A stretch of DNA of 64,000 nucleotides, taken from the NCBI GenBank assembly GCA_031430855.1, contig JANPCG010000015.1, positions 68,522-132,521 of the forward strand, read 5' to 3'. This document shows, one piece after another, positions 11,131 through 55,169 of this stretch (positions are counted from its first letter, which is position 1; every line of letters begins with the position of its first letter). The notes beneath the pieces are model-generated. The model was not told the origin of the DNA. It made no database searches and saw nothing but the letters and a program-made list of their open reading frames with translations. A program made the position numbers and the translations under genes. Origin of the DNA: Candidatus Kaiserbacteria bacterium (GTDB taxonomy: Bacteria; Patescibacteriota; Minisyncoccia; Phycocordibacterales; UBA918).

Positions 11131-11159
11131 TGGATGACCTATTCGTTAATATTTATTTT

Positions 11160-17734: not shown

Positions 17735-17868
17735 TATCCAAATGGTGTACTGCTCCTGTAAGGAGAAGCGCTGGAGCGTATACTCCAATACTTTTGAATA
17801 CATACGTTATTTCCGTATTTTGCACCCTTGGTCCTTGAACTGGTATACTAGGGCACGTCATTTGCTGT

Positions 17869-30049: not shown

Positions 30050-30400
30050 ATGGCAACTCCAACAACCAAAAAAACCAAAGCTGGTGCCGATGTGGTTGCA
30101 AAACTGCGTATCCGAGTGCGTGCCTTCGAGCACAAAATCCTCGATAGCTCAGTCAAGCAAATCATCGATACTGCCCTACGGTTTGACGCCGAAGTAGTCG
30201 GCCCGATTCCACTTCCAACTGAAATCAAGAAATACACCGTGAACCGGGCGTCGTTCGTATACAAAGACGCGCGAGAACAATTCGAAATGCGAACTCATAA
30301 ACGAGTTATCGACATTATGAACCCGAGTCCAAAAGTGATTGAAGCCCTCACCAATCTTTCATTGCCGTCCGGCGTGAATATTGACGTGAAGATGATGTAG
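30050..30400 (+). CDS. rpsJ: 30S ribosomal protein S10
   Basis: LRIRVRAFEHKILDSSVKQIIDTA...GPIPLPTEIKKYTVNRASFVYKDAREQFEMRTHKRVIDI matches S10. Confidence 0.9.
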   Translation: MATPTTKKTKAGADVVAKLRIRVRAFEHKILDSSVKQIIDTALRFDAEVVGPIPLPTEIKKYTVNRASFVYKDAREQFEMRTHKRVIDIMNPSPKVIEALTNLSLPSGVNIDVKMM

Positions 30401-30440
30401 TTTTTTACTCCTTAAAAAACTCCTCCCTGCATTCGCTCGG

Positions 30441-30478
30441 ACGCAAAATCCCCTACATTCGTAGGGGATTTTGCGTCG
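30441..30478. repeat. Perfect 17-bp-arm hairpin GACGCAAAATCCCCTAC-attc-GTAGGGGATTTTGCGTC downstream of rpsJ (no T-run)
   Basis: Seen directly in the sequence. It lies immediately upstream of repeat copy 4. Confidence 0.5.
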
Positions 30479-30508
30479 CTCGGCTCATTTAGTAGTAAAG
30501 CAAAACAT

Positions 30509-30714
30509 CGAGTGAGAAGTGACTAATGTCACTTCTCAAGACCTTATCGCTCTTTTGAAAAAAAGCGATAAGGCTGTAATTGCATCCTAATGCAATCTGC
30601 GGAGTGATATTAAGTCATTCCTCACCCTGCTCATTTCTCACCCCTCACCTAGGGCTGAAACGTGATTAAATATCACGTTTCAGAGCTATTTGAGATAGTT
30701 TGAAGCGTGAAAAC
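30509..30714 (+). repeat. Structured repeat element, copy 4 (long form, same hairpin1 as copy 3; hairpin2 CCTTATCGCTCTTTT..AAAAGCGATAAGG; hairpin4 CTGAAACGTGAT-taaat-ATCACGTTTCAG)
   Basis: Aligns with copy 3 along its whole length. Hairpins 2 and 4 carry compensatory substitutions. Confidence 0.65.
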
Positions 30715-30900
30715 TGTCTAAAGGTATGCAGATCCTGCGAGGAAGTTTATCCGTCTCTTCTCAACTTGATTATTTAACTACTTTAATAATGCTTTAGACA
30801 GTATTTGTGTGAACACAAAATCCTTCGTGGGGTCCATTCTGGGTGTGTGCACAAAGTCTGTGTGTAGCCGTTTTAAATGATAAACTTTGCTTAACCTTCT

Positions 30901-31425
30901 TTGTGTATGACTTTTTTTAAACCGTTTGTTATTATCCCTACTTTTCTTATCATTGCGCCACTTTTTTTAGGTTATAGTTTTATGAGTGCCCAGGTGTGGA
31001 CCAGTCCGCTAGCAACACCGCCTGCTAATAATACGAGAGCTCCGATAAATGTGGGTATCTCTGCAACCACTTTGCAAAATGGTGCTGGGTCGCTAGTCTT
31101 TAATCGTTTCGCGGCGACAGATGCTGTATGGTCAAATTCATACTGTGATTCTCTTGGGGGTAACTGTTTCTCCCCTGCTACTGGCCCAGCTATTCCAAAT
31201 CCTACCTGCGTTAACCGATCGAGTGCAATTGGTTCAAATAGCGTAACAATTTCGTGTCTGGCGGGTGAAGTAGCAATGAGTGGTGGGTGTCTTGACACCT
31301 GTTCAGGTGTCAGGACCGGTGATTGTACGGCTAAGGCAATTAATTACTCCGTACCAACAACTAACGGATGGTCATGTACGGTAAATAATCGGGCTCAGGC
31401 CACCGTACGCTGTTGCACATTCTAA
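30901..31425 (+). CDS. Exported Cys-rich protein, paralog P1 of a four-member family (conserved N-terminal module AQVWTSP..PPANN..APINVG..LVFNRFAATDAVWSNSYCDSLGGNC)
   Basis: N-terminal TM/signal followed by a conserved ~80-aa module shared with 37449-38219, 38325-39005 and 53992-54510. The C-terminal part is variable with 10 Cys. Confidence 0.6.
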   Translation: MCMTFFKPFVIIPTFLIIAPLFLGYSFMSAQVWTSPLATPPANNTRAPINVGISATTLQNGAGSLVFNRFAATDAVWSNSYCDSLGGNCFSPATGPAIPNPTCVNRSSAIGSNSVTISCLAGEVAMSGGCLDTCSGVRTGDCTAKAINYSVPTTNGWSCTVNNRAQATVRCCTF

Positions 31426-32009
31426 TTGCTGGACAAGATTATAGTAGTGACACTAACATGATTTCTCGCTCAGCTCTTTATCTTTGGATAAATCCGGTTC
31501 TAGTCGCGAGATGTCTTAGGTGGTGCCAGCAGTAGTGCGCGCAGACCTATTCCTAGAACGTCCAGTAATTAATCGCTCTCTTTTGACTAATGCTCGTGCG
31601 TGCGACGTGGTGGAAGATTGTCCAACTCAAAACTTTGAATTAATAAATATTGATTTTCCCGATGTATGACTTTGATAATGTGGGAATATAGCCAAGGTTG
31701 TGAGTGACAATCGAAGCGTGCGTATAGTGGTCGTCTCTACTCGTTTAGGATCTCTACCGTCACAAAAAACTGGACAGGATTGAGGACGACTGCTTTGGTG
31801 GGGTGCACATTAGTAATAGTTAATCACGTGTGTTTCTGAGTCCGAATTAGTTCATTCCGTTGAAGAATCTATAGCTTCGGGCTCAACTGATGTACCCATA
31901 ATACAATTATAAATAAAGTTTTTTAGAAAAGTGCTGTGAAAGAAGTAGGGGTTTTGTCCACAGATAGTATTGGTACCTTTAGATCTAGAATGTATAGTTA
32001 GTAGCAATG

Positions 32010-32040
32010 GGGGTGTGTTCCGAAAGGAGCACACCTTTTT
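32010..32040 (+). terminator. Orphan terminator-like hairpin (GGTGTGTTCC-gaaa-GGAGCACACC, then TTTTT) with no upstream CDS
   Basis: Stem plus T-run about 600 nt after the nearest upstream gene on this strand. It may terminate a non-coding transcript. Confidence 0.25.
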
Positions 32041-32079
32041 GCTGTAAAATTGTTTATCTCAAGTTAATAGAGCGTTATT

Positions 32080-34122
32080 ATGAAATCATTAGCATTTATC
32101 TTAAACCCTTTGCGTCGAAACCTGAACCTCACCTTAGTAGCTGGGGCGGCAGTGTATGTAATACTACTATTGTCTCCGAGCGTCTCGTCGGCAGCTGAAC
32201 GTCAACTTGAGCGGGGGATGTATGGTGAAGATGTGCGGTCACTACAGGTACTATTAAATAGTGATGATTCAACCCAAGTTTCAGAGAGTGGGGCAGGGTC
32301 AAGAGGTAAAGAAACAACTTTCTTTGGACGCGCAACTGAGGACGCTTTGATAAGATTCCAACAGAAAAATTTATCTAATATTCTCGATGTTTCTACATTA
32401 GGAGCTGGGATTGGTGTGTATGGCCCAATTACAAAATTGTTCGTATCGGAAAGAATGCTTGTGTCGACTATTTCAGATAAATCTCGTATCGTCGCAGACA
32501 CTTTCTCAAGTCAAAATACCAGCATATTAAACACAGCAACAACAGCTACTACCCAAATGCAAAAAGCTTCACTTGAAATAGTGGGGTTGTTAGAAGGATC
32601 TGTTGTAACTGGTGAGATTGTGGTTGAAGCAGTTTTAAAGGGTTTTATAAACACAAAAATAACCCGAGTAGTGTTTCAAATAGATAACGTAGTTGTGAGA
32701 ACAGAGAAAGTTGCCCCGTATTCTCTCGGTTCAAGTAAACCTGATTTGTCTTCAATTCCTTTTAATTTTTCTGCATTTGAGGATGGAAAACACAAGCTTA
32801 TTGTCACGGTGTTTGGAGATGAAATATCTTTATCAAATCCACGTACGAATGTTGGATTACTAAGCAAAACGCTTCTTTTTAGTACGAAAAAAAGTAGTAA
32901 GAGTCCATTTATAGTTCCTGTAGTAAAGACTAGTAAAATCGAACCGGTGAAATTACCTGCTGTGCCAATGAACTCACCTATTGCTACTCAAATTAATGCA
33001 AACGCAGTGTTATGTTCTAATGAAAATACAGAATGTAAATTCTCTGGTACAAGAGAAATCCGTTACGGTATTGGGAGTAAATTTTTTACTAAAATACTTA
33101 CTAATGGAACAGCTTGCACGAACGCAGTATTTTCTGATCCGATTGTTGGGATTAAAAAGTTATGTTACGTAGTAAATGGTACTTCAGATAGTAATAATAC
33201 TAATCAACCTATCAGTGCCGACATGCAAAAAAAGCCAGATATAATTCGGTCAACAACACCAGTAACGGTTCCCGTCGTGCCAATTACTAGAGCAGTTATT
33301 ACTCCTCCTGTTACATCTGTGCCAGCGCCAGTATCTCCAACTATAATTGCGTCAACATCAGGCAACAAAAATGTAAATGTCCTTGTAAATAAAGGAGCCG
33401 CAAGCGGCAGTCTTGGATGTGAGATTATTAATCAGTACTACGTAGAAAGTAAAAAAGTAGCAAAATATAAATGGAAGAGCTTCAATGCTGAAGAAGTCAT
33501 GGTTAATGGTAAGTCAGCCTCAGTTAATTCAGGTGTCTTGCTAACGTCGGAAATTACTTTCAATGGAACCAAAGCAACTGCCTTTGAGTTAGTCGTGAGT
33601 AAGGGAAGTGAAAGTAAGACTTGTCGAGTAATAGTGCCACCACTACTAGCGAAGTGTACAGCAACATTTACTGATAATATTCTTGATAAAACTTTAGTTG
33701 ACTATAAAGTAACTTTTCCCGCAATACCGGGAGCTCCGTACCAATCCAGTATGTATAATTCTCGAGGACTTCTACTGGCAACCTACAGTTCTGGAGAATT
33801 AGTAAATGCGACGAGTGTCACCTATACAGGAAAAATACTAAAAACTGCCGTAGCTGATAAAAAAGAAGTACAGTTTTTAACGAGAATGTATTTTCCGACA
33901 AACCTGATGGCTTCCATTCTTAATAACTCAAAATGTGTCACAAAGTACACCCCAGGCGCAGTAAATACTGTGCCTACGCAAGGAAATAATGGCTCTGGCA
34001 GCGGTCAAGCCGTAACGCCAACCATCCCCCGGAGTGGCACGACACCAGCAGCACCAAGTGCGCCAAGTAGTGGTGGTAGTTTAGGATCACCGTCATTACA
34101 AAACGGTCTATTAAATTTCTAA
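32080..34122 (+). CDS. Secreted protein (680 aa) with N-terminal peptidoglycan-binding-like domain and Ig-like/beta-rich repeats
   Basis: Signal/TM, then LERGMYGEDVRSLQVLLNSD...GRATEDALIRFQQKN (PGBD-like). A long Ser/Thr/Val-rich beta region follows. C-terminal Gly/Ser/Pro-rich tail. Confidence 0.6.
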   Translation: MKSLAFILNPLRRNLNLTLVAGAAVYVILLLSPSVSSAAERQLERGMYGEDVRSLQVLLNSDDSTQVSESGAGSRGKETTFFGRATEDALIRFQQKNLSNILDVSTLGAGIGVYGPITKLFVSERMLVSTISDKSRIVADTFSSQNTSILNTATTATTQMQKASLEIVGLLEGSVVTGEIVVEAVLKGFINTKITRVVFQIDNVVVRTEKVAPYSLGSSKPDLSSIPFNFSAFEDGKHKLIVTVFGDEISLSNPRTNVGLLSKTLLFSTKKSSKSPFIVPVVKTSKIEPVKLPAVPMNSPIATQINANAVLCSNENTECKFSGTREIRYGIGSKFFTKILTNGTACTNAVFSDPIVGIKKLCYVVNGTSDSNNTNQPISADMQKKPDIIRSTTPVTVPVVPITRAVITPPVTSVPAPVSPTIIASTSGNKNVNVLVNKGAASGSLGCEIINQYYVESKKVAKYKWKSFNAEEVMVNGKSASVNSGVLLTSEITFNGTKATAFELVVSKGSESKTCRVIVPPLLAKCTATFTDNILDKTLVDYKVTFPAIPGAPYQSSMYNSRGLLLATYSSGELVNATSVTYTGKILKTAVADKKEVQFLTRMYFPTNLMASILNNSKCVTKYTPGAVNTVPTQGNNGSGSGQAVTPTIPRSGTTPAAPSAPSSGGSLGSPSLQNGLLNF

Positions 34123-34793
34123 AATAAAGTACGAGGTACAAAAAACTCTGATATTTCAGGGTTTTTGTTAATTAAAGTGAGGTGTATAAAATTGTTTGTA
34201 TTATTGATGCTCTAATAACCATATCTTACATAAACAGTTATAAGTACATGATATATAAAAGTAATAATTAAAAATTAATTACAAGCAAATATTAAACCAA
34301 GTTCTTAAATGCTAACTCCCATGATTATAATTGTGATTTAGATAATGGTTAATCTGTAATTGTCCCACCAAAACATTATTATCGAATGAATTTATTTACT
34401 GCTAACTTAGCAAATACCCACTATCTATTTCTTGGGTTACCCGTAGAGGGTTCTCGATTGTGCTGTGGTATCGAGTTTAGATAGAGTGCTAACACATCAG
34501 CGGGAGGTAAACCTATCGGGTATATGGTGCGGGTGAGGCAGCGATTGGGGTGTCGATCAATGAGTTATTAATGTTGAGTGACGTAAAGTAATGACAGCCT
34601 GCTTGCTTTTTGTAAAAATTCACGTATAGTATCAGCAGCTTTTAAAGACCTACGTTCGTAGTAAAGACTCTCCGTGAATCTTTCCGAACCAATGGGCACA
34701 AACCGCGCTTTTACGTGTGGGACTTGTGTCCCGCGTTATATAGCGCGGTTTGTTGTACGGTCAAAAAGCGTTTATTCGTTAATTTCATTCATT

Positions 34794-35414
34794 ATGAAAT
34801 TTATAGTCGGAACCAAAGACCGTATGACGCAAGTCTTTGATGCCAGTGGTGTTTGTCACCCAGCGACAATTCTCCGGGTTGAACCGGCCGTAGTGGCGCG
34901 CATCAAGACAGTTGAATCAGATGGCTATGCTGCTGTGCAGCTCGCCTCCGGTTCACAAAAAGAATCTCGGATTGCGAAAGCCCAAAAAGGACAATTCAAT
35001 AACCCAAGTGTGGTTCGTGAATTTCGTCCGAAGGTCGCCTATAACGAAACAATTGAGGGTGTTGCCGCTGGTGACGCGCTTGATGCATCGGTATTTGCGG
35101 CTGGTGATATGGTTATCGTATCTGCCATCTCAAAAGGTAAAGGTTTCCAAGGTGTGGTGAAGCGTCACGGTTTTGCCGGCGGACGTCGCTCACACGGACA
35201 GAAACACTCAGAACGAGAACCGGGGTCAATTGGAGCAACGGGACTCAATCGTGTTATGAAGGGTATGCGAATGGCCGGACGGATGGGGGGTGACCGAATT
35301 ACGGTCAAGAATCTCGTTGTGCTCCAAGTCAACGCTGCCGAAAACCTACTGTTGATCAAAGGTGCCATTCCTGGTCGAAAGGGCACATTAGTAGAAGTAC
35401 GTGGTACTAAGTAA
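34794..35414 (+). CDS. rplC: 50S ribosomal protein L3
   Basis: MKFIVGTKDRMTQVFDASG...GKGFQGVVKRHGFAGG..SHG matches L3. The start is taken at internal ATG 34794; the ORF extends to 34674 through a structured leader. Confidence 0.9.
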   Translation: MKFIVGTKDRMTQVFDASGVCHPATILRVEPAVVARIKTVESDGYAAVQLASGSQKESRIAKAQKGQFNNPSVVREFRPKVAYNETIEGVAAGDALDASVFAAGDMVIVSAISKGKGFQGVVKRHGFAGGRRSHGQKHSEREPGSIGATGLNRVMKGMRMAGRMGGDRITVKNLVVLQVNAAENLLLIKGAIPGRKGTLVEVRGTK

Positions 35415-35424
35415 GCATTATTAT

Positions 35425-36120
35425 ATGAATACAAAATTATATACGGTTACGGGTACTGAGGCAGGATCAATTGATCTGCCAGCGTCAGTATTTGACGTAG
35501 CGTGGAATGCTGACTTGGTTCACGGGGTGGTACTGATGATGCAGGCCAATGGTCGGGCTGGTACTGCCGACACGAAAGGACGCGGTGACGTACGCGGAGG
35601 TGGAAAGAAACCGTGGAAGCAAAAAGGAACCGGACGAGCCCGACATGGTTCGTCTCGAAGTCCGATCTGGGCCGGGGGAGGAGTGGCGCATGGTCCAAAG
35701 TCAGAAAAAGACTACTCAAGCAAAATCAACAAGAAAATGCGAGCTAAAGCGCTTGCAGCTGTATTTAGTAAAAAGTTTGCTGATACGGAGATGATTTTCC
35801 TCTCAGAGCTTGCAATGACTGAACCAAAAGCTGCGCTAGGAAAAACTATCATTAAAGCGATTGCTTCAGGAACTGGATATGCTGATCTCGCTACCAAGCG
35901 AAAGAACGCAGCCGTGCTTGTTCTCGGTACACGTGATGAGATGATTGAAAAAAGCTTCCGTAACTTCGGTAATATCGAAGTTATTCAAGCGAAAGATATT
36001 AATCCGGTTGATTTACTTACGTACAAATACGTAATTATGGCGAATAGTAGTGATACCCTCAAAGTCCTCGAGACCCGGGTCGCTGCCATTGCTCCAAAAA
36101 CAACCACTAACGCAAAATAG
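35425..36120 (+). CDS. rplD: 50S ribosomal protein L4
   Basis: ...GGGKKPWKQKGTGRARHGSSRSPIWAGGGVAHGPK... matches L4. Confidence 0.9.
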   Translation: MNTKLYTVTGTEAGSIDLPASVFDVAWNADLVHGVVLMMQANGRAGTADTKGRGDVRGGGKKPWKQKGTGRARHGSSRSPIWAGGGVAHGPKSEKDYSSKINKKMRAKALAAVFSKKFADTEMIFLSELAMTEPKAALGKTIIKAIASGTGYADLATKRKNAAVLVLGTRDEMIEKSFRNFGNIEVIQAKDINPVDLLTYKYVIMANSSDTLKVLETRVAAIAPKTTTNAK

Positions 36121-36121
36121 T

Positions 36122-36496
36122 ATGGCACTCTTCAGTCGAACAAAAAAAACTGTAGAGGCAAGTGAAGGAACTACTGCAAAAGTAGTTGCGCCGACACTCG
36201 CTCGTAGTACTGATCGTAACCTCGCAAGCGTCCTCGTGAAGCCCGTGGTAACTGAAAAGGCAGTGATGCAACATGATTCCCGTGTCTATACGTTCATCGT
36301 TGCAAAAAACGCCACCAAGTTTTCAGTCAGCGACGCAGTAACTGCACTCTACAAAGTGACGCCGGTGAAAGTAAACATCGTCAATAAAAAACCAAGTAGT
36401 TCATTGTCTCGAAGTCGCGGTCGAGCGATTTCGGTTGCTGGTTATAAGAAAGCCTATGTGTACCTCAAAAAAGGAGATACCATTAATCTTGTATAA
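36122..36496 (+). CDS. rplW: 50S ribosomal protein L23
   Basis: ...VLVKPVVTEKAVMQHDSRVYTFIVAKNATKFSV...VAGYKKAYVYLKKGDTI matches L23. Confidence 0.9.
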   Translation: MALFSRTKKTVEASEGTTAKVVAPTLARSTDRNLASVLVKPVVTEKAVMQHDSRVYTFIVAKNATKFSVSDAVTALYKVTPVKVNIVNKKPSSSLSRSRGRAISVAGYKKAYVYLKKGDTINLV

Positions 36497-36498
36497 TC

Positions 36499-37359
36499 AT
36501 GAAAAAATATAAACCAACATCAGCGGGTCGTCGTGACGGCTCAGTGATTGAATACAAGAAGAAACTTACTACCACGAAGAGTAATCCTTTGAAGTCGCTT
36601 ACGATGGGTGGTAAGAGTTCAGGTGGACGCAACAACCAGGGACGTACTACGGTCCTCAATCGAGGTGGAGGAAATAAACGTACCTACCGTTTGGTAGACT
36701 TCCGCTACGATAAGAAAAATATTCCTGCGAAAGTAGAGAGTGTTGAGTATGATCCATACCGAACCGGCTTTATAGCGCTCGTTCTTTTTGCTGACGGCGA
36801 ACGTCGCTACGTCCTTGCACCACAGAATATGGTGAAGGGTGACGAGATGATTGTTTCAGAAACTGCCAAGCCGAAAGTAGGGAACCGTTTGCCGCTCGGT
36901 AATATTCCGGTTGGTACAATGGTATTTAACGTTGAAATTAAACCTGGTGCGGGAGCGAAACTCGCTCGTTCAGCTGGTAACAACGCCGAGGTGGTAGCCC
37001 AAGATAGCGGCTACACTCTGGTTAAAATGCCTTCAACCGAAATCCGAAAAATCATCAGTACTGCCTGGGCAACCATCGGTGCTGTATCAAATGAAGAAAA
37101 TCGTTTGGTTGATTTAGGAAAAGCGGGACGTGCTCGTCATCGAGGAATTCGTCCAAAAACTCGTGGAGCCGCTAAGAACGCAGTGGACCACCCACACGGA
37201 GGAGGAGAAGGAAAGGCACCGCGAGGACACCGTCGTGCTCGTACGAAGCAGGGACGACCAGTTGGAAAGGGTCAAAAGACTCGTTCACCAAAGAAGTACA
37301 GTAACAAGTTTATTGTCACAAGACGAAAACCAGGCCGATTAATGACATCACGAAAGTAG
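36499..37359 (+). CDS. rplB: 50S ribosomal protein L2
   Basis: ...GRNNQGRTTV..RGGGNKRTYRLVDF... HRGIRPKTRGAAKNAVDHPHGGGEG matches L2. Confidence 0.95.
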   Translation: MKKYKPTSAGRRDGSVIEYKKKLTTTKSNPLKSLTMGGKSSGGRNNQGRTTVLNRGGGNKRTYRLVDFRYDKKNIPAKVESVEYDPYRTGFIALVLFADGERRYVLAPQNMVKGDEMIVSETAKPKVGNRLPLGNIPVGTMVFNVEIKPGAGAKLARSAGNNAEVVAQDSGYTLVKMPSTEIRKIISTAWATIGAVSNEENRLVDLGKAGRARHRGIRPKTRGAAKNAVDHPHGGGEGKAPRGHRRARTKQGRPVGKGQKTRSPKKYSNKFIVTRRKPGRLMTSRK

Positions 37360-37365
37360 TCAAAT

Positions 37366-37440
37366 AACACAAAACACCCCCATCTGGGGGTGTTTTGTGT
37401 TTGGGTACAACTATCAGGGGTGAATATATACCGCGGTATA
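37366..37440 (+). repeat. Direct repeat unit A (terminator AAAACACCCCC-atct-GGGGGTGTTTT + GTGTTTGGGTACAACTATCAGGGGTGAATATATACCGCGGTATA leader)
   Basis: About 95% identical to 38228-38302. It contains the rplB terminator and a TTGGGT-N18-TATATA promoter-like leader for P2. Confidence 0.7.
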
Positions 37441-37448
37441 ATTATTAT

Positions 37449-38219
37449 ATGACAATTACAAAACAAGTAGCCGTTATAATTTCTATTGCGGTAATTCTAC
37501 TTGGTCTGGCTGGGTATAACTTCATGAATGCGCAAGTGTGGACTCGTCCAACATCTCAGCCGCCACAAAATAACGTTCGAGTACCTATTAACGTGGGAAT
37601 TTCGTCTACAACAATTCAAAATGCAGTAGGCTCACTCGTCTTTAATCGATTTGCAGCAACAGATGCTGTGTGGTCCAACGCATATTGTGATTCTCAGGGG
37701 CAAAACTGTCAGAATCTAGGAAGTTCAGCAACTTCAGCAATTAATTACGTGCAATATGCAAAAGACTATTGCGATTTAAATGTTCCTAATCCAGGAAGTA
37801 CAAGTCTTCACGGAGTTAAATTAGCTAAGGGCGGTTTTTATGATTTTTATGATAAAAATGGAGCAACTTCAATTTTGGAATGGACATGTAAAGGTCCGAC
37901 TTCAGAAGTAAGCTACGAGATTCAAAATGCGTGTGGTTTTAGTGTAATAAATCCGGGCAGTGTGTCTCTGAATTCCGTTAGATTAAAAAATGGAACTAAT
38001 TATGATGTGTATGATTCTAATGGAGGAACCGCGATTCTGGAGTGGAGATGTAATAGCTCTGCACCAACCTATATAAGAAATATTGAAACCGCTTGTGGTT
38101 TTAGAGTTCCAAACCCAGGGAGTATTTCTCTAAACGGGGTCGTTGACAGAAATGGTAATTTCTTTGATCTTTATGATAATAATAATGGAACCGCGCGGCT
38201 CGTGTGGAGTTGTAATTAA
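37449..38219 (+). CDS. Exported Cys-rich protein, paralog P2 of the family; C-terminal region has three ~50-aa tandem repeats
   Basis: Conserved N-terminal module (NAQVWTRPTSQPPQNNVRVPINVG...YCDSQGQNC). Then 3x [C..NPGS.SL..V.L..G..YD.YD.NG.T..L.W.C]. The ORF extends to 37395 inside the repeat leader. Confidence 0.6.
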   Translation: MTITKQVAVIISIAVILLGLAGYNFMNAQVWTRPTSQPPQNNVRVPINVGISSTTIQNAVGSLVFNRFAATDAVWSNAYCDSQGQNCQNLGSSATSAINYVQYAKDYCDLNVPNPGSTSLHGVKLAKGGFYDFYDKNGATSILEWTCKGPTSEVSYEIQNACGFSVINPGSVSLNSVRLKNGTNYDVYDSNGGTAILEWRCNSSAPTYIRNIETACGFRVPNPGSISLNGVVDRNGNFFDLYDNNNGTARLVWSCN

Positions 38220-38227
38220 ATTTGTAA

Positions 38228-38302
38228 ACACAAAACACCCCCTATATGGGGGTGTTTTGTGTTTGGGTACAACTATCAAGGGTGAATATATACCGCGGTA
38301 TA
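38228..38302 (+). repeat. Direct repeat unit B (second copy of terminator + leader)
   Basis: See unit A. It marks a tandem duplication of the terminator/leader plus a family gene. Confidence 0.7.
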
Positions 38303-38324
38303 CTAATTATAGTAAGTATTTTAA

Positions 38325-39005
38325 ATGAAATTAACAAAACATTTTACAACAATAGTACCTCTTACTGTCATTTTTCTTGGCCTGGCTGGATACGGTTTTA
38401 TCAGTGCGCAGGTATGGACTAGTCCAACCGCGACTCCTCCTGCTAATAATGCTGCTGCTCCAGTAAATACTGGTTTAACTACCCAAACATAATCGGGTAA
38501 CTTTAGTGCAAACATTGTCTCCGCTGCAACCTCAACCTGGTCACCAAGATATTGTGATGCGTTGGGTGGTAACTGTTGGGACCCTACAACTGGCGCTCCT
38601 GGTGGGGGAGATACGATTATTGTTGGGGGGCAATGCTTCGAACCAGCCTGGGCGGTAACATGTAATTGGAATTGGAGTGGTGATGGAAATGACAATAGTA
38701 CATACATTCGACCATTAAGTGTTAGTCCTACTGGAGTTTGTAATTCAGTGGGAAGATCTTACCAGTACCACACCATGATTTTAGCGCAGTGCACCGCTGC
38801 ACCAGTATATGCCTGGTCAGTTGGCGCGTATGCTTGTAACGCACCGTATGCGTACTCGTGTCAAACAACTTCAGGAACCAATGTTCGTACGGTAACATGT
38901 CAAAATCAATATGGCGGTGTCGGTGCTGATAGTCTCTGTCCTAGTCCAAAGCCTACGACTGCGGGCGGATCTTGTACGAGGAATGGTGGTGGAAGTGACT
39001 GTTAA
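38325..39005 (+). pseudogene. Family paralog P3 interrupted by a single in-frame TAA (38490-38492); otherwise intact over 226 codons
   Basis: MKLTKHFTTIVPLTVIFLGLAGYGFISAQVWTSPTATPPANNAAAPVNTGLTTQT*SGNFSANIVSAATSTWSPRYCDALGGNCWDP... is all in one frame. The downstream part is annotated as ORF 38562..39005. Confidence 0.55.
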
Positions 39006-39128
39006 TTAAATCATCTATCAAACACAAAACTCTCAGGCAACTAGCTTGAGGGTTTTGTAGTTTATGCAAAAAAAGTTTGTAGGTAAGACTTGTCAGGGAT
39101 TTCTTTAGCGATATGATACAATTTTTGT

Positions 39129-39428
39129 ATGTTTAATTTTGTTGTAGATAAGTTACGACCAAAGTCTGAGTCAGGTAAAGTGGTGACACCAGCTGAAGCG
39201 CTTGAAAATAAATCAGTATGGAGCAGCCAGAGACTTAAAGACGGAATCCGTGACTATGAAGTGCTGATGGCGTTTATGGCTGTTGATCGTGCAGCGGGAG
39301 ATTCTCAACTTCGAGAAAAAGGTCTGGATACTATTCGAGGGATTCTCGCTAGTGAATGCAGGATGACATTTACTTCTGAAGCAGAGCTCGTGCAGTTTGT
39401 GAATGATTATAGTTTGCTTACTGAATAG
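39129..39428 (+). CDS. Hypothetical protein (99 aa)
   Basis: Codon composition is coding-like. No domain recognised. Confidence 0.35.
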   Translation: MFNFVVDKLRPKSESGKVVTPAEALENKSVWSSQRLKDGIRDYEVLMAFMAVDRAAGDSQLREKGLDTIRGILASECRMTFTSEAELVQFVNDYSLLTE

Positions 39429-39504
39429 ATTTCAAACTCTTTTTATATATCCCTAGTATCATTCACTTGGTTCTGGTAAAAACCATGAACCATGCTGATT
39501 TTGA

Positions 39505-39822
39505 TTAAATGCCCGGCTTCTTCTCTCGTTCATTCCATTGAAATAGTTTAAGATTCTTGTTTGCTTTTAGGTTGTCAATGAGAAACTTAGTTCGTTTCGG
39601 TTCGACGACGTGGACAGCGATTTTTTGGACTCCGGTTCCAGATATAATCAGCTCAAAACCAGCCTGGGTGTAGACCACTGTTATAAATCGTGGTCCTGAT
39701 CTACGAGCATCAATGATACCCGGAGCAATCATTTTAATGCCAGATATTTTTCCGAGCACCCGCACGACTGTTTCGGCCGTCTCGGTTAGTGTTGTATGGG
39801 AACTCCCTCGTTTACGCGCCAT
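39505..39822 (-). CDS. Hypothetical small protein (105 aa)
   Basis: Coding-like ORF that overlaps the upstream gene by 11 nt. No confident domain. Confidence 0.4.
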   Translation of the reverse strand: MARKRGSSHTTLTETAETVVRVLGKISGIKMIAPGIIDARRSGPRFITVVYTQAGFELIISGTGVQKIAVHVVEPKRTKFLIDNLKANKNLKLFQWNEREKKPGI

Positions 39823-40423
39823 GGTTCATGTATATCATTAATAACGGTTCAGCGATAAGCCGCAATAAATACAGGACTCCAATCGACCCAACCAGTAATC
39901 GCCACTTTCCTTCATATTTTAAATAGAGGTAAGTCAGGAGCCCGAGAACGAGGATGCTATCAAATACGCTCACATATCGCCCAAACTCTACAGTATTCCA
40001 ATATGAAATAGGGCTGTGAAATTTCCAATCTAAGAACGGATAAAAGTGACGGTACGCATCCTCTGTATGGACGAAAAAATCAACGATGGTGTGAAAAAGG
40101 GCTGAAATACTAAAGTATTTAAGAAAATTCCAGCCAAAATGTACGGAAAATCCAATCAGAAGGGGCCACAAGATAAAGGAATGGGTGAGGGTGATCGGGA
40201 TACTCCAGCCGGAATTAAAGTACATATCGTCCCACATTACCTCGCCTGAATACCCTAAAATAAGCCCATAGACGATAAAAAAGACATACGTTGGAGTATC
40301 AGGAAATAAAGCCCCTAGGATAAAAGCGGACGTCCGCTGTTTTGTGGAGACTGGGTTCAGGTCTAGTTTTTCAGTTTTTTTAGCTAGTGCCCAGCTGTAT
40401 ATGAGGTGGGACGGCGTAATCAC
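39812..40423 (-). CDS. Membrane-bound metal-dependent hydrolase-like protein (YdjM/DUF457-like)
   Basis: N-terminal M..SHLIYSWALA, multiple TM helices and conserved His residues (HSFILWPLL, HFGWNF, HTIVDFFVH), as in DUF457. Confidence 0.4.
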   Translation of the reverse strand: MITPSHLIYSWALAKKTEKLDLNPVSTKQRTSAFILGALFPDTPTYVFFIVYGLILGYSGEVMWDDMYFNSGWSIPITLTHSFILWPLLIGFSVHFGWNFLKYFSISALFHTIVDFFVHTEDAYRHFYPFLDWKFHSPISYWNTVEFGRYVSVFDSILVLGLLTYLYLKYEGKWRLLVGSIGVLYLLRLIAEPLLMIYMNHGA

Positions 40424-40467
40424 GTTTTCACTATACCATCAAAATATTGAAAAAGCGCCGAAAATGC

Positions 40468-40496
40468 TTGACGCTTCGTTAAATTTCCCGTACTAT
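40468..40496 (+). promoter_or_regulatory. Sigma70-like promoter (TTGACG-N17-TACTAT) driving a ~300-nt structured leader upstream of rpsS
   Basis: Near-consensus -35 and -10 boxes with 17-nt spacing. The leader contains hairpins CGGCAC..GTGCCG and GCACACCAT..ATGGTGTGC. Confidence 0.45.
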
Positions 40497-40810
40497 AGCC
40501 CACGTTCCTAACCGCATCGGTTATCGGCACCTATCTAGTGCCGAAAGTGTCAAAACAGAGAGCAAGTAAAGTTCAATTGTTTGGGAACCTCTGTTAAGTA
40601 AGGCAGTTACCTATACTTAGCCGAGGTTCTCAAAAGAGCACACCATTCATTTCATGGTGTGCATTTATCCATAGGACGCGCATATGTGGAAAATTTCTTT
40701 TTCGCACCTGCAGATTTCACCGCTCACCTTACTTTTGTAAGGCTCGGGAAAAATCCTTGCTGCTGCGCGAAATTTCCTCACCTGCACCCGTCCTAGTTAC
40801 ATTAATAAGT

Positions 40811-41152
40811 ATGTCACGATCACTCTATAAAGGACCCCACGTAGACGAGAAGCTGATGAAGAAGATCGCCGGTAAAAAACCCGGAGAGAGTGGTGTCATT
40901 AAAACATGGGCTCGCGCCAGTATGATTGCGCCAGAAATGGTCGGTTTTACATTCGGAGTTCATAACGGAAAAGACCACGTCGCGGTTGTTGTGGCTGAAG
41001 AAATGGTAGGACATCGTCTTGGAGAATTTTCTTCAACGAAGAAGTTCCATCGCCACGGAGGTAAGATGCAGAAAGAGCTTGAACAAAAGAAAAAGGAAGC
41101 TGAAATCGCTGCTGCAAAGGCTTCTAAGTCCGCTGGACCAAGTAAGAAATAA
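40811..41152 (+). CDS. rpsS: 30S ribosomal protein S19 with Lys/Ala/Glu-rich C-terminal extension
   Basis: MSRSLYKGPHVDEKLMKKI...GHRLGEFSSTKKFHRHGG matches S19. The start is internal ATG 40811. A ~30-aa charged tail is added. Confidence 0.9.
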   Translation: MSRSLYKGPHVDEKLMKKIAGKKPGESGVIKTWARASMIAPEMVGFTFGVHNGKDHVAVVVAEEMVGHRLGEFSSTKKFHRHGGKMQKELEQKKKEAEIAAAKASKSAGPSKK

Positions 41153-41154
41153 GT

Positions 41155-41478
41155 ATGAAAGCAATTCTCAAAAATTACCGTCAATCTCCCCGCAAGGTTC
41201 GCCTGGTGGCTGATGTTGTACGAGGAAAAAAAGTGAATGATGCTATTGCAGCCCTTCAGTTTGTCGACAAGCGTTCATCTGAAGCCTTTCTAAAGGTTAT
41301 CAAGTCTGCTGCCGCGAACGCTACACAAGCGGGTGCTGACGTGTCACATTTGATTGTAAAACACGTATCAGTTGATAAAGGTATTACCCAAAAGCGTTTT
41401 ATGCCACGAGCTCGTGGTTCAGCGTCACGAATTAACAAGCGCAGTAGTCACATTACTGTGGAATTAGGTAACAAATAA
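41155..41478 (+). CDS. rplV: 50S ribosomal protein L22
   Basis: MKAILKNYRQSPRKVRLVADVVRGKKVNDAIAALQF matches L22. Confidence 0.9.
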   Translation: MKAILKNYRQSPRKVRLVADVVRGKKVNDAIAALQFVDKRSSEAFLKVIKSAAANATQAGADVSHLIVKHVSVDKGITQKRFMPRARGSASRINKRSSHITVELGNK

Positions 41479-41479
41479 T

Positions 41480-42208
41480 ATGACACACGTAGCCCATCCA
41501 TATGTTCAACGTATTGGTATCAATCGTGACTGGCGCAGTCGTTGGTTTACCACTGACCCAAAGCAGTTTCGTGAGTACTTGCGTGTAGATGCCCAAATCC
41601 GTAAATTCCTTGCTACCCGATTAAAGGGTATGTCAGTTGACACGGTTGAAATTGAGCGTGACCAAAAATCAGTTCGTATCATTATTAAAACTGCTCGTCC
41701 TGGACTCGTCATTGGTCGTAGTGGAGAAGGAGCGGTAAAGTTGAAGAAAGAAATAGACATGCTTTTCCGTAAGGCGTCGCTCACTACTAAGCCCGAAATC
41801 AAGCTTGATGTTGAAGAAATTCGTTCACCAGAATCAAGTGCCAACATTGTTGGACAAATGATTGCTGAAGGTCTAGAGAAGCGTCTTACCTTCCGTCGCG
41901 TTATGAAAATGACGATTGAAAAAGTTATGGCAAACCGTGATGTGGAAGGAGTAAAAATCATTCTTTCTGGTCGTCTTGGCGGTGCTGACATGGCTCGTAA
42001 AGAAGAACTCAAGAAAGGACGAATTCCACTTCAGACCCTACGTGCTGACATTGACTTCGCTCGCGTAACGGCTCGTTTGCCATACGGAGCGATTGGGATC
42101 AAGGTGTGGATCTATCGTGGACAAGTTTTTGCTGACCGTAAAGCTGGTCAGGCCGACACTGCACCACGCGCGACACGAATGGAAGATACTCGAAGTACTA
42201 ATCGATAA
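41480..42208 (+). CDS. rpsC: 30S ribosomal protein S3
   Basis: KH and S3-C domains: ...GRSGEGAVKLKKEI... GRLGGADMARKE..KKGRIPLQTLRADIDF. Confidence 0.95.
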   Translation: MTHVAHPYVQRIGINRDWRSRWFTTDPKQFREYLRVDAQIRKFLATRLKGMSVDTVEIERDQKSVRIIIKTARPGLVIGRSGEGAVKLKKEIDMLFRKASLTTKPEIKLDVEEIRSPESSANIVGQMIAEGLEKRLTFRRVMKMTIEKVMANRDVEGVKIILSGRLGGADMARKEELKKGRIPLQTLRADIDFARVTARLPYGAIGIKVWIYRGQVFADRKAGQADTAPRATRMEDTRSTNR

Positions 42209-42213
42209 TCTGT

Positions 42214-42648
42214 ATGTTATTTCCTAAAAAAGTAGCCCACCGCAAGTGGCAAGTTGGACGCAAGAGTCCTGAAAAATTGGCTCGTCCAGAGACTCGAGGT
42301 ATCACTGTTGCGTTTGGAGAGTACGGTCTTAAGGCTACTACTCCATCACGAGTTCGTTCAAATCAAATTGAGGCCGCTCGACGAGTGATTTCTCGCACAC
42401 TCGGTAAAACCGGAAAAATTTGGATTCGAATTTTCCCTGACAAGCCAATTACACAAAAAGCGGCAGAAGTGCCGATGGGTAAAGGTAAGGGGGACCCTGA
42501 CCACTTCGTGTTTGAAGTAGCACCCGGACGAATCTTGTTTGAAGTCGAAGGAGTTTCAGAAGAACTCGCCCGCAAGGCTTTGCGTAAAGCAGTAGCAAAA
42601 CTTCCATTAAAAGCTAAGGTGGTAACCCGTGCAGAAACCCGCGCGTAA
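42214..42648 (+). CDS. rplP: 50S ribosomal protein L16
   Basis: MLFPKKVAHRKWQVGR...GEYGLKA...RQIEAARR matches L16. Confidence 0.95.
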   Translation: MLFPKKVAHRKWQVGRKSPEKLARPETRGITVAFGEYGLKATTPSRVRSNQIEAARRVISRTLGKTGKIWIRIFPDKPITQKAAEVPMGKGKGDPDHFVFEVAPGRILFEVEGVSEELARKALRKAVAKLPLKAKVVTRAETRA

Positions 42649-42657
42649 TATATCGAT

Positions 42658-42852
42658 ATGAAATACTCTGATATACAAAAGAAAAGTGACAATGAGCTCG
42701 GAGAGCTCATTGTGGCTGCGCGTGAAGATTTGCGAGCCGAACGCTTCAAAGATAAATTTAGTAAAAAAGCTGCGACTATCCGAACTGCCAAAACAACAAT
42801 TGCTCAGGCACTCACTGAAGTCACCAGTCGCCGTAACCAGGTAAGTAAATAA
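42658..42852 (+). CDS. rpmC: 50S ribosomal protein L29
   Basis: 64-aa protein (...ELGELIVAAREDLRAERFK...) at the operon position of L29. Confidence 0.85.
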   Translation: MKYSDIQKKSDNELGELIVAAREDLRAERFKDKFSKKAATIRTAKTTIAQALTEVTSRRNQVSK

Positions 42853-42853
42853 T

Positions 42854-43117
42854 ATGAGTACCATAGAAACAGTAGTAGCCCCAAAAGGCCGCGTACTCCA
42901 AGGTACTGTTGTATCGACCAAGATGACCGATACTATTACGGTGATTGTTGACCGGTACGTAAAGCACCCAAAGTACAAAAAGTACGAACGACTTTCAAAA
43001 AAGTTCCTTGTTCATGACAAGGGAAACACAGCGAAAGAAGGTCAGCTTGTCTCAATTCGAGAAACTCGTCCGATGTCAAAGCGGAAGCATTTTGAATTGG
43101 TAACCATTAACAAATAA
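42854..43117 (+). CDS. rpsQ: 30S ribosomal protein S17
   Basis: ...RVLQGTVVSTKMTDTITVIVDRYVKHPKYKKY..KKFLVHD matches S17. Confidence 0.9.
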   Translation: MSTIETVVAPKGRVLQGTVVSTKMTDTITVIVDRYVKHPKYKKYERLSKKFLVHDKGNTAKEGQLVSIRETRPMSKRKHFELVTINK

Positions 43118-43120
43118 CAT

Positions 43121-43492
43121 ATGATTCAACCTCAAACATTGGTCCGTATTACGGACAACTCTGGTGGAAAGATGGGTCGTGTGTTCAAGGTTCTTGGTGG
43201 CTCAAAGAAGCGCTACGCAGAATTGGGTGAAGTCGTGGTGCTTGCAGTACAAACTGCAGAGCCCCGAAAAGCGGTAAAGAAAAAGGATGTGGTCTACGGC
43301 GTTGTCGTACGACAAGTAAAGCCGTATCGTCGAAAGGATGGATCGTACGTTAGTTTTGATGATAATGCGGTTGTCCTTATCGATAAGGTAAAGAAAGAAC
43401 CAAAAGCGAACCGTGTATTCGGTCCGATTCCCCGAGAGCTCGGCGAGGCCGGTTATCAGAAAATCGTCTCCTTGGCCCCAGAGGTTGTATAA
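43121..43492 (+). CDS. rplN: 50S ribosomal protein L14
   Basis: MIQPQTLVRITDNSGGK..VFKVLGGSKKRYAELGEVV matches L14. Confidence 0.95.
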   Translation: MIQPQTLVRITDNSGGKMGRVFKVLGGSKKRYAELGEVVVLAVQTAEPRKAVKKKDVVYGVVVRQVKPYRRKDGSYVSFDDNAVVLIDKVKKEPKANRVFGPIPRELGEAGYQKIVSLAPEVV

Positions 43493-43516
43493 GGAACGTA
43501 TATCTATACCAATACT

Positions 43517-43828
43517 ATGAAATTAAGAAAAGGGGACACCGTTAAGGTGATTGCTGGAAAAGATAAAGGAAAGACCGGTACCATTCTCACTGCCCTAAAG
43601 GCAACTGAGCAAGTGGTGATTGAAGGTATTAATGTTGTCACCAAGCACCAAAAGAATAAACGAACTCGTTCACGAGGACAGATTGTTACCGTAAGTATGC
43701 CGATTCACGCCTCAAACGTCGCGTTGATGGAGGGTGATAAGGCCGTACGCGCAGGCTACGTCTTTGAAGGGGAGGGAGACAAGCGAACCAAGGTCCGCGT
43801 CGCTCGACCGAGTGGTAAGAAAATATAA
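43517..43828 (+). CDS. rplX: 50S ribosomal protein L24
   Basis: MKLRKGDTVKVIAGKDKGKTGTIL (KOW motif) matches L24. Confidence 0.9.
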   Translation: MKLRKGDTVKVIAGKDKGKTGTILTALKATEQVVIEGINVVTKHQKNKRTRSRGQIVTVSMPIHASNVALMEGDKAVRAGYVFEGEGDKRTKVRVARPSGKKI

Positions 43829-43832
43829 TTGT

Positions 43833-44378
43833 ATGGAAACAACACTCACAAAAATTAATTCTGCCTACACTACCCTTAAGGGTGAGTTCGGATATCAGAA
43901 TGTGATGCAGGCACCAAAGGTAGAGAAAATTGTTGTCTCGATTGGTACCGGTCGTGTACAGGACAAGCAAAAAGAGGCACTCATCCGAGATCGACTCGCT
44001 CGTATTACGGGACAGAAGCCGGCGGCTCGTCCAGCCAAGCAATCAATTGCTGCTTTTAAGCTCCGAGCTGGTGAAATCATCGGGTACCAAACAACACTTC
44101 GTGGTGCGCGGATGCAGCACTTCCTCGATAAGCTCATTAATATTGCGTTGCCACAGACTCGTGACTTTCGCGGACTCAAAGTAACGGCAATTGATGAAAT
44201 GGGGAACATCACTATTGGTATCAAAGAACACACTATTTTCCCAGAATGTAGTGATGAAGAAATCAAAGATGTTTTCAGTTTTGCCATTACGATTGTAACG
44301 ACAGCGAAGACAAAGAAAGAAGCCGAGGCTTTCCTTCGACACATTAATTTGCCGTTAAAGAAAGAAGAATCTAAATAA
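43833..44378 (+). CDS. rplE: 50S ribosomal protein L5
   Basis: ...YQNVMQAPKVEKIVVSIGTG... RGARMQHFLDKLINIALPQTRDFRGL matches L5. The start is internal ATG 43833. Confidence 0.9.
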   Translation: METTLTKINSAYTTLKGEFGYQNVMQAPKVEKIVVSIGTGRVQDKQKEALIRDRLARITGQKPAARPAKQSIAAFKLRAGEIIGYQTTLRGARMQHFLDKLINIALPQTRDFRGLKVTAIDEMGNITIGIKEHTIFPECSDEEIKDVFSFAITIVTTAKTKKEAEAFLRHINLPLKKEESK

Positions 44379-54788: not shown

Positions 54789-55169
54789 ATGAATCGACTC
54801 ACCATTGTTACTCTGATTGTGGGTACGCTCTTTGCGGTAACGCATACTAATAATGAAATCAACCACTTATATTGGTACTACCCAGGTTTAGAGTATGTCA
54901 TGCATGTGTGGGGTGGAATAGTATTATATTTACTTCTCCAGGTATTTTTATGGCTCTCATTTATTCCCCAAAATATTGCCAGGCGACCGTTGGCTCTGGT
55001 TGGGATTTTAGTAGCAGGGATGGTTACGTGGGAACTCTATGGTATCTACCGGTATGGTGGCTTTAAACCCCACTACGTATTTGATACAAGCCTTGATCTC
55101 GTGTTTGGTATACTAGGGTGTATCATCGGATGGGTGATTTATCGACTAATGAAAAAACGCATAACATGA
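54789..55169 (+). CDS. Small membrane protein (126 aa, four TM), hypothetical
   Basis: Hydrophobic ORF that overlaps the next gene start by 4 nt (ATGA). Confidence 0.4.
   Translation: MNRLTIVTLIVGTLFAVTHTNNEINHLYWYYPGLEYVMHVWGGIVLYLLLQVFLWLSFIPQNIARRPLALVGILVAGMVTWELYGIYRYGGFKPHYVFDTSLDLVFGILGCIIGWVIYRLMKKRIT

Follow-up and report, generated by a model that had tools for sequence, protein, structure and literature searches.

A probable expression module repeated ahead of secreted, tail-fibre-like genes in the ribosomal-protein cluster of a Kaiserbacteria genome

In Mycoplasma, the surface-protein gene arrays vsp (M. bovis), vlp (M. hyorhinis) and vsa (M. pulmonis) switch expression by site-specific inversion or by slippage in promoter homopolymers. 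In Neisseria, the Correia elements (CREE) are miniature inverted-repeat transposable elements (MITEs), which have terminal inverted repeats and a TA target duplication and occur in hundreds of copies, in both orientations, beside unrelated neighbours. The order of ribosomal genes from rpsJ to rpsQ, for its part, is that of the S10 operon in E. coli and in most bacteria. To our knowledge, almost nothing is known of promoters, terminators and regulons in the Patescibacteria (Candidate Phyla Radiation, CPR), which are mostly uncultured. Here we analyse a stretch of 64,000 nucleotides (nt) from a Candidatus Kaiserbacteria contig (JANPCG010000015.1), called the window below, in which an 83-nt repeat stands twice between rplB and rpsS, once ahead of each of two paralogous genes, P2 and P3.

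We put the probability at roughly two in three that this repeat serves a lineage-specific family of secreted, tail-fibre-like proteins as a compact intergenic expression module, and that recombination has homogenised the flanks. In this model, the T-rich 3' arm of a hairpin would most likely end transcription arriving from rplB (copy 1) or from P2 (copy 2). A 12-mer abutting the hairpin, TTTGGGTACAAC, would serve as an upstream promoter element, most likely bound by a dedicated activator; a variable spacer of 25-27 nt and a -10 box of the TATAAT type would follow, such that the mRNA begins at, or a few nt ahead of, the AUG, P2 being leaderless and P3 having a 14-nt leader. The family would form a small regulon, transcribed independently of the surrounding ribosomal genes. 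Neighbouring paralogs would recombine in their 5' flanks, by gene conversion or unequal crossing-over, and so homogenise them, and the flank repeats would at the same time be substrates for gene gain and loss in the array.

Among described systems, the locus is best described as akin to multigene surface-protein families with conserved 5' modules. Like the Mycoplasma arrays, it has tandem paralogs in a reduced genome, with near-identical 5' regions and signal-peptide codons but differing mature parts, and with chimeras, gains and losses through recombination at the conserved 5' parts. Unlike those arrays, it shows neither an invertase nor an inverted copy or slippery tract, each gene seems to have retained a complete promoter of its own, the proteins are not lipoproteins, and variation is seen between strains only. 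The Correia elements are similar as short intergenic repeats that give their neighbours a terminator-like structure and promoter activity; however, neither the MITE traits nor the copy number, the mixed orientation or the unrelated neighbours apply to the unit in the window.

The repeated unit and its counterparts in related genomes

The two copies of the unit, as delimited by alignment and repeat search, occupy 37367-37448 and 38229-38311 on the forward strand. They are about 94% identical over 83 nt, with four substitutions and one indel in the loop by global alignment, and 28-29 of 30 positions agree in each sliding window across the whole tract. The repeat search pairs 73 nt at 93% without gaps, and a 31-mer of the unit has two exact matches in the window versus none expected from 100 shuffles. 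The original prediction of a repeat at this place thus stands, and the two units are truly homologous, although the repeat reaches slightly further 3' than had been described. On the left, where the tail of rplB is compared with the tail of P2, identity is at random level and the border is sharp. On the right, copy 2 carries a 14-nt insertion, after which the copies agree at about 65% of positions in the signal-peptide codons and at 30-50% beyond. The repeat is not an assembly artefact, since it is present in independent assemblies (L001 from ENA and L002 from NCBI); L002 (JAYTDW010000015.1, GCA_043735715.1) is identical to the window throughout the 12.8 kb compared (31449-44219).

Each unit begins with a hairpin 6 nt past the upstream stop codon, followed by the 12-mer, the spacer, the -10 box and a family gene. 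Hairpin 1 (37366-37401, forward strand), which follows the stop of rplB and is terminator-like, has a perfect 16-bp stem, AACACAAAACACCCCC / GGGGGTGTTTTGTGTT, with the loop ATCT; its fold has a free energy of -27.8 kcal/mol (z -5.4), and none of 200 shuffles was as stable. Hairpin 2 (38226-38264, forward strand), past the stop of P2, has a 17-bp stem identical to that of hairpin 1 and the loop TATAT; the 53 nt of 38222-38274 fold at -31.0 kcal/mol (z -5.5, 0 of 200 shuffles), and the hairpin at 38226-38264 itself at -28.9 kcal/mol. The terminal T residues of the stem overlap the 12-mer, which lies on the forward strand at 37400-37411 in copy 1 (about -49 to -38) and at 38262-38273 in copy 2. 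The -10 box of P2, TATAAT, follows 25 nt past the 12-mer at 37437-37442 (forward strand), and the seventh nt past it is the A of the ATG at 37449. The corresponding box of P3, TATACT (38299-38304, forward strand), stands opposite TATAAT when aligned to copy 1 and the other units; the predicted start at about 38311 would give a 14-nt leader that has no Shine-Dalgarno motif. The two copies agree at 16 of 16 stem positions and 24 of 25 spacer positions. The hairpin loops (37382-37385 and 38243-38247) vary among near-identical strains (ATCT, TATAT, TATCT, and AGAT in hairpin 2 of L001), while the stems remain perfect.

This anatomy agrees with several earlier statements, namely that each copy directly precedes a family paralog, that in each a terminator-like hairpin is joined to a promoter-like stretch, and that family genes are placed between rplB and rpsS. 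Two details have to be revised. First, a promoter of the form TTGGGT-N18-TATATA had been assigned, weakly; TATATA is found in no other unit, and what is conserved instead is TTTGGGTACAAC, a spacing of 25-27 nt, and TATAAT. Second, the part past the hairpin had been called a leader; in copy 1 the -10 box ends 6 nt ahead of the ATG, which leaves no leader.

A third hairpin stands after P3 (39021-39062, forward strand; -22.5 kcal/mol, z -7.7), and its 5' arm starts with AAACACAAAAC, as in hairpins 1 and 2. By alignment, a diverged remnant of the unit follows it, without the 12-mer. The extended -10 box of the next gene, orf99, TGaTACAAT (39114-39122, forward strand), aligns with the TATAAT of the units, and the seventh nt past its last T begins the ATG at 39129; the promoter scan also listed TTGTCA-16-TATGAT near orf99.

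The survey of units covered 14 in the window and three related genomes (L003, L016 and L062), and all 14 lie 5' of family genes. The 12-mer is exact in 12 units and has two mismatches in the other two; it is 25-27 nt ahead of the -10 box throughout, and this box is TATAAT in all units except window copy 2. A perfect hairpin of 14-19 bp (-20 to -33 kcal/mol) is present in 13 of the 14, with its stem ending -3 to +1 nt from the 12-mer. About seven different stem sequences occur among these 13 intact hairpins, all of them paired (six among the 11 folded, and one common to the two units with the degenerate motif), and compensatory changes occur at 7 of 13 consensus pairs. The hairpin past rplB in L003, L016, L062 and L076 likewise has another stem sequence with the pairing kept. 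What is conserved across genomes is only the 12-mer, its spacing and TATAAT; the stem and spacer of the window are unrelated to those of L003.

The most informative relative is L003 (GCA_040384045.1), whose rplB is 81% identical to that of the window in nt and 95% in amino acids (aa). Its gap between rplB and rpsS holds six family genes, a 98-aa gene and orthologs of the window genes orf105 and orf203, followed by rpsS. Each of the first four family genes is preceded by a hairpin, TTTGGGTACAAC, 25-26 nt and TATAAT, and two further units precede family genes 5' of rplC, where one unit carries the variant TATGGGTACAAT. Units occur even after genes outside the family (rplB and an 804-aa gene), and there is none after the last family gene of the arrays, nor within the tightly spaced g4-g5-g6 group of L003. 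Since every unit stands 5' of a family gene, also where it follows a non-family gene, and none comes after the last family gene of an array, the module belongs to the downstream gene.

The pattern TTTGGGTACAAC-N24-27-TATAAT was also scanned against 185,579 GTDB genomes, one per species, which returned 52 stretches. Clustered matches came only from Patescibacteria contigs of this lineage: four in L016, in the array after rplB, and five in L035 and L038, which we take to be the same contig as L003. The remaining matches, about 45, are singletons in unrelated taxa, about the number that chance gives for 18 specified bases over 1.2e12 positions. Singletons in L015 (Patescibacteria) and L037 (Saccharibacteria) were judged chance occurrences, family genes not being adjacent, and so were five motif matches on viral contigs of one phage group, which have neither hairpin nor family gene. 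A stricter scan of JGI metagenomes added L062.

These results bear on the question of whether a small mobile or dispersed repeat, of the repetitive extragenic palindromic (REP), MITE or Correia type, was inserted twice. The unit is indeed short, intergenic and hairpin-bearing, and it is gained or lost between strains. However, only two copies are present in 64 kb, both on one strand; on reading the unit, no terminal inverted repeats are evident besides the hairpin, and no target duplication; all 14 units are tied to one family; and no such copies were found in the other taxa or the viruses scanned. We therefore hold a mobile repeat to be highly improbable. A generic REP element unrelated to the family, which the original prediction had itself raised, is likewise not what related genomes reveal, given that 14 of 14 units precede family genes and that clustered GTDB matches are confined to the lineage.

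Age of the gene pair and of its flanks

The unit and the gene behind it had been read as the record of a recent tandem duplication of a regulatory cassette plus gene. In its fullest form, this explanation holds that a block of terminator, leader and gene was recently duplicated in tandem and that the coding parts then diverged fast under diversifying selection. It is in keeping with the tandem arrangement of the units, in equal orientation and each ahead of a paralog, with the identity of about 65% that remains in the adjoining signal-peptide codons, and with the fast evolution that surface-protein families often undergo. The genes themselves, however, tell of a different age. P2 and P3 are 47% identical in aa over the N-terminal region, but their C-terminal parts, at 23%, are unrelated and of different domain types: three repeats of 58 aa in P2 versus a module like the thrombospondin type-1 repeat (TSP1) in P3. 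The C-part of P2 is 70% identical to that of L003 g1 and 65% to that of L004 gB, and the C-part of P3 is 50% identical to that of L003 g2 and 48% to that of L016 g1. The order rplB, P2-like gene, P3-like gene is common to the window and L003. Because orthologs of both genes stand in equal order in L003, the gene pair is older than a split across which rplB has diverged by 19% in nt; as the rplB proteins differ at 5% of residues, this change is mostly at silent sites. The units, in contrast, differ by about 6%. Therefore only the 83-nt flank is young, and a recent duplication of the whole block is very unlikely.

It might be argued that the flanks look young merely because purifying selection acts strongly on every base, without any recombination. 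Across genomes there is indeed clear constraint on the hairpin structure, on the 12-mer and on the -10 box. Such constraint does not extend to the 25-nt spacer and the stem, which are not conserved between genomes and yet are identical at 24/25 and 16/16 positions within the window; the same spacer and stem sequences are absent in L003 and L016. Hence the likeness of the two copies is young, and functional constraint is not the explanation. Neither does selection on the unit account for the homogenised tract of L003, which differs and runs into the coding region, nor for the hybrid unit of L069 described below. We consider selection alone an unpromising explanation, with a small chance of being right.

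In L003, a comparison of unit 1 plus g1 with unit 2 plus g2 gives about 96% identity over the span that starts at the 12-mer and runs through codon 32, whereas the hairpins and the gene bodies differ. The mosaic nature of these genes is evident from the protein comparison: in the N-part, g1 shares 92% identity with g2 and 45% with its window ortholog P2, whereas in the C-part the figures are 22% and 70%. Paralogs are thus closer than orthologs inside the tract and the reverse holds outside it, as is expected of concerted evolution. The L003 tract, which has other borders, is an independent case of homogenisation.

Exchange at the unit has also left its mark among very close strains. The recombinant strain L069 (GCA_043719065.1), whose rplB is 99.4% and whose P3 is 98.4% identical in nt to those of the window, lacks P2 and has one hybrid unit, which stands between rplB and an intact P3. 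The left flank of this unit, together with a G at the position of 37417, is of the copy 1 type, while TATACT and the 14-nt leader are of the copy 2 type; markers of copy 1 on the left and of copy 2 on the right place the crossover within the 24 identical bases between them. From the end of rplB to codon 26, L062 equals L003 except for one indel at the hairpin top, and it then continues into another paralog body, about 77% identical to a truncated L003 gene. In L016, a P3-type gene comes immediately past the rplB hairpin, and in the L076 lineage (rplB 86.5% identical in nt) the rplB hairpin is followed by an orf99 homolog and no array. A second gain or loss of a family gene within the ribosomal cluster was observed at the strain level: the segment 30597-31761, which comprises the third paralog P1 and its upstream sequence, is missing from L069, where about 275 nt of unrelated sequence stand in its place; elsewhere L069 is 98-99% identical.

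Could the exchanges be site-specific instead, with the hairpin and the 12-mer forming an attC- or dif-like recombination site, as part of an integron-like array or of switching by inversion or at an expression site? Gene-sized cassettes bounded by an imperfect palindrome and a conserved core, in arrays whose content differs between close strains, would look much like this locus, and GTACAAC is one mismatch from the R'' core of attC (RYYYAAC). Yet no recombinase is found among the neighbouring genes of the cluster, and each cassette has its own promoter with a -10 box. More importantly, the breakpoints lie at four different places: in the spacer (L069), at codon 26 (L062), at the edge of the 12-mer (L003) and at the base of the hairpin (window). 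Breakpoints at differing places indicate homologous rather than site-specific recombination, and we find a site-specific system improbable.

Predicted transcription from the unit

How the unit would act in transcription can be judged against the other genes of the window. Among 68 crude gene calls, Shine-Dalgarno motifs are almost absent, and many genes have a TAnnnT box that ends 6-8 nt ahead of the ATG and is often extended by TGn; examples of TAnnnT or TGnTAnnnT are found at 3977 (reverse strand) and at 9242, 39129, 54789 and 62914 (forward strand). On this pattern, leaderless mRNAs may be the norm for the organism. The distance from the -10 box to the ATG in the units matches that of other window genes, and the P2 mRNA is predicted to be leaderless. 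A separate motif, TGGTATACTAGGG, consisting of an extended -10 box and the next bases, occurs at 17841-17872 and 55106-55137, 5' of two unrelated genes, and is probably a common form of strong promoter.

The units lack a TTGACA-like -35 hexamer 16-18 nt 5' of the -10 box as well as TG at -15/-14, and the promoter scan did not list them. The sequences at the -35 position vary (TCAGGG, CTAAGA, TTAGAT and others). Several roles for the 12-mer were considered and rejected. It is not a -35 hexamer, because canonical 17-nt spacing exists in this organism (TTGACG-17-TACTAT of rpsS) and the 12-mer is 25-27 nt from the -10 box. As a sigma-54 element or a sigmaB-type -10 it would need partner elements, and none stands at the proper spacing; as a palindromic operator it offers only the arms TTG...CAA. 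Since the unit promoters have neither a good -35 nor TGn, an upstream promoter element is the role that we infer for the 12-mer (about -49 to -38), and it is most likely bound by a dedicated activator. Further contacts, like those of an UP element, might come from the T-rich 3' arm of the hairpin (about -65 to -50). The 12-mer matches no regulator site known to us.

The closest ordinary arrangement would be a junction of a terminator with an activator-dependent, class II-like promoter. The likeness lies in a stem-loop, GC-rich and with many T on its 3' side, that comes directly past the stop codon, and in a TATAAT box with a conserved site, centred near -44, that takes the place of a good -35. 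Unlike ordinary junctions, however, the terminator and the upstream element are fused here (-3 to +1 nt in the 13 units with intact hairpins) and move as one 83-nt module, and the transcripts are predicted to be leaderless.

A cis-acting RNA, that is, a riboswitch or attenuator transcribed from upstream with the hairpin as its regulated terminator, would be another way to read the so-called leader. In its favour there is a very weak Phe_leader-like match of hairpin 1 with its upstream sequence, at 26.9 bits versus a gathering threshold of 55 (E 0.47). Otherwise, Rfam gave nothing meaningful, neither for the whole window at the gathering threshold nor for 30380-41000 at E<=1. Moreover, the sequence from the hairpin to the -10 box is not conserved, copy 1 has only 6 nt from the -10 box to the ATG, and the hairpin comes directly past the stop codon with no upstream leader ORF (open reading frame) or antiterminator alternative. 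We give this explanation next to no weight.

Several points weigh against the expression-module model and should be borne in mind. First, the terminator scan listed hairpin 2 but not hairpin 1, and the stretch 3' of the stem, TGTTTTGTGTTT, is T-rich but interrupted, lies partly within the stem and partly pairs with the upstream A-tract; termination at the hairpin, the start sites and the leaderless status are all predictions. Second, the 12-mer is not a clear palindrome, and its occurrence in the source genome was judged from the 64-kb window. The strictly abutting hairpin and 12-mer could form one DNA or RNA recognition element of another kind. Third, P1 in the window and the P2 ortholog in L004 carry other upstream sequences; the module is thus not obligatory for the family. 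Fourth, L069 could in principle be ancestral and the window the product of an insertion, in which case, as in the opposite one, the junction lies inside the unit.

The gene family and its setting in the S10 cluster

P2 (37449-38219, forward strand) encodes a secreted protein of 256 aa with a hydrophobic N-terminal signal, an N-domain and three repeats, each about 58 aa long and containing Cys. P3 (38325-39005, forward strand) is a family gene of 226 codons with a Cys-rich, TSP1-like C-terminus, and P1 (30907-31425, forward strand), between rpsJ and rplC, is the third paralog, with another upstream region and no 12-mer. The three share the family's N-terminal region: a hydrophobic signal and a short N-domain, of which there are two subtypes in the family, followed by C-terminal parts that differ. 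P2 has few close homologs, among them the orthologs P0001 (60%) and P0002 (58%). An exhaustive HMMER profile search returned 2729 cluster representatives, nearly all of which match over the N-terminal 105 or so positions only, the triple repeat of the P2 type being rare; a word-indexed search with the N-domain profile gave only 14 matches. Sampled members with the N-domain end in H-type lectin domains or in Peptidase_S74 (tail-fibre chaperone) domains. The end of the P3 type is a thrombospondin type-1 repeat (38820-39005 in the window), a domain uncommon in bacteria; P3 orthologs in L003 and L016 match PF19030 TSP1_ADAMTS, at E 6e-7 and 3e-8 for 8340-8536 and 9265-9450 of L003.

Longer relatives of P2 provide a link to phage. 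P0006 and P0007 match PF21446 Gp34_trimer (Pfam E 1e-17) and, from the common motif 'PIN.G...Q.K.G.L' on, the long-tail-fibre proteins T4 gp34 and Mu S (PDB E about 1e-14). The Peptidase_S74 and H-lectin tips of other members are a further point of likeness to phage fibres; P1-P3 differ in having a cellular-type N-terminal signal and in their setting on a bacterial chromosome without nearby phage genes. P1-P3 themselves have a short version of the N-domain, with the first conserved motif only, and stay below the Pfam, NCBIfam and PDB thresholds; with orf99, orf105 and orf203 included, no Pfam or NCBIfam family was assigned or only sub-threshold matches were obtained. A PDB profile search with the N-domain alignment gave no match, and an AlphaFold2 model of P2 from a seven-sequence alignment (mean predicted local distance difference test score, pLDDT, 34; predicted template modelling score, pTM, 0.20) is unusable. 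From domain matches and sequence comparison, the description that best fits the family is that of secreted, tail-fibre-like proteins whose binding tips can be exchanged; they may act in attachment.

The P3 gene of the window has an in-frame TAA at 38490-38492. In the sister strains L001 and L069 this codon is AAA (Lys), at a conserved Q-x-K position, and the ORF is intact, which excludes recoding; P3 would thus be a very recent pseudogene, or the stop a consensus error, in this assembly only. At 38362, another difference between strains puts Pro in place of Leu within the P3 signal peptide.

The window holds a str/S10/spc ribosomal cluster with tuf (28690-29886), rpsJ (30050-30400), rplC, rplD, rplW and rplB, then rpsS, rplV, rpsC, rplP, rpmC, rpsQ and more. 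The last gene ahead of the insertion, rplB (36499-37359, forward strand), encodes ribosomal protein L2 (gene calls; Pfam Ribosomal_L2_N and L2_C, E 3e-29 and 9e-46), and rpsS is at about 40811-41152 (Pfam S19, E 1e-30). The E. coli order rpsJ-rplC-rplD-rplW-rplB-rpsS-rplV-rpsC-rplP-rpmC-rpsQ is kept; the cluster differs from the E. coli operon in two breaks, in genes on the opposite strand, and in a separate promoter with a long leader for rpsS. The first break, between rpsJ and rplC, contains P1 and a secreted protein of 680 aa (32080-34122) with weak PG_binding_1 and Big_7 matches; the second, between rplB and rpsS, spans about 3.4 kb with five genes, P2, P3 and orf99 on the forward strand and orf105 and orf203 on the reverse strand. 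Hairpins stand 3' of both rpsJ and rplB. Of the approximately 35 substitutions that separate the window from L001 over 12.8 kb, 13 fall in the 680-aa gene, which is a local hot spot of strain variation.

The stretch 39129-40423, with orf99 (39129-39428, forward strand), orf105 (39505-39822, reverse strand; weak DUF2103 match) and orf203 (39812-40423, reverse strand; weak match to PF00882 Zn_dep_PLPC, its L003 ortholog weakly matching PF04307 YdjM), is the older, conserved portion of the insertion. Orthologs of orf105 and orf203 occupy the equal site in L003, and orf99 homologs come after rplB in L076 and L004; the 98-aa gene in the orf99 position of L003 has no evident similarity to orf99. The overlapping orf105/orf203 pair (39505-40423, reverse strand) is kept inside the S10 cluster in the window and L003, immediately 5' of the rpsS promoter. 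This promoter, TTGACG-17-TACTAT (40468-40496, forward strand), which serves the rpsS-rplV-rpsC... unit, was listed by the promoter scan and is conserved in L003. The leader that follows, of about 310 nt within 40424-40810, has several blocks strongly kept in L003, for example TGTTTGGGnACCTCTGTTAAGTAAGGCnGTTACCT and TTAGCnGAGGTTCTCAA, which makes it a candidate structured ribosomal-protein leader; the region had no Rfam match.

Elsewhere in the window, intergenic repeats at 17530-17723, 30495-30704 and 10899-11131 form series of short hairpins, such as GAGAAGTGACTAATGTCACTTCTC and GAAACGTGATTAAATATCACGTTTC. The copies at 17.5 kb and 30.5 kb are about 86% identical over some 200 nt; one copy lies between rpsJ and P1, and the block CATTTCTCACCCCT.CCTAGGGC of these repeats is found again 3' of rpsJ in L004. 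A tRNA scan found none.

For annotation, the locus holds two lessons: near-identical flanks beside diverged paralogs should be taken as conversion tracts and not as evidence of recent duplication, and the stop in P3 is a strain-level mutation and not recoding. In the literature on CPR/Patescibacteria promoters, leaderless mRNAs, S10 interruption and fibre-like surface proteins, we found no relevant description. Against this background, the locus offers a comparatively supported promoter architecture for these bacteria, with leaderless geometry and a lineage-specific upstream 12-mer, and it is a natural case in which the otherwise very stable S10 cluster is divided into separate transcription units.

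A bolder proposal, which we regard as doubtful but not far-fetched, is that the hairpin, TTTGGGTACAAC, the promoter and the signal-peptide block together form a dedicated, portable 'expression head', at which homologous exchange frequently swaps, adds or drops tail-fibre-like adhesin bodies at a fixed and highly transcribed site behind rplB, while a factor that binds the 12-mer co-regulates them. If true, this would be a cassette-type system for surface or host-range variation in episymbiont-type Patescibacteria. The family is fibre-like, with tips of the lectin or TSP1 type, and the content of its array changes between strains that are 99% identical. If its proteins mediate attachment to host cells, recombination at the common 5' module would provide a simple route to host-range variation.

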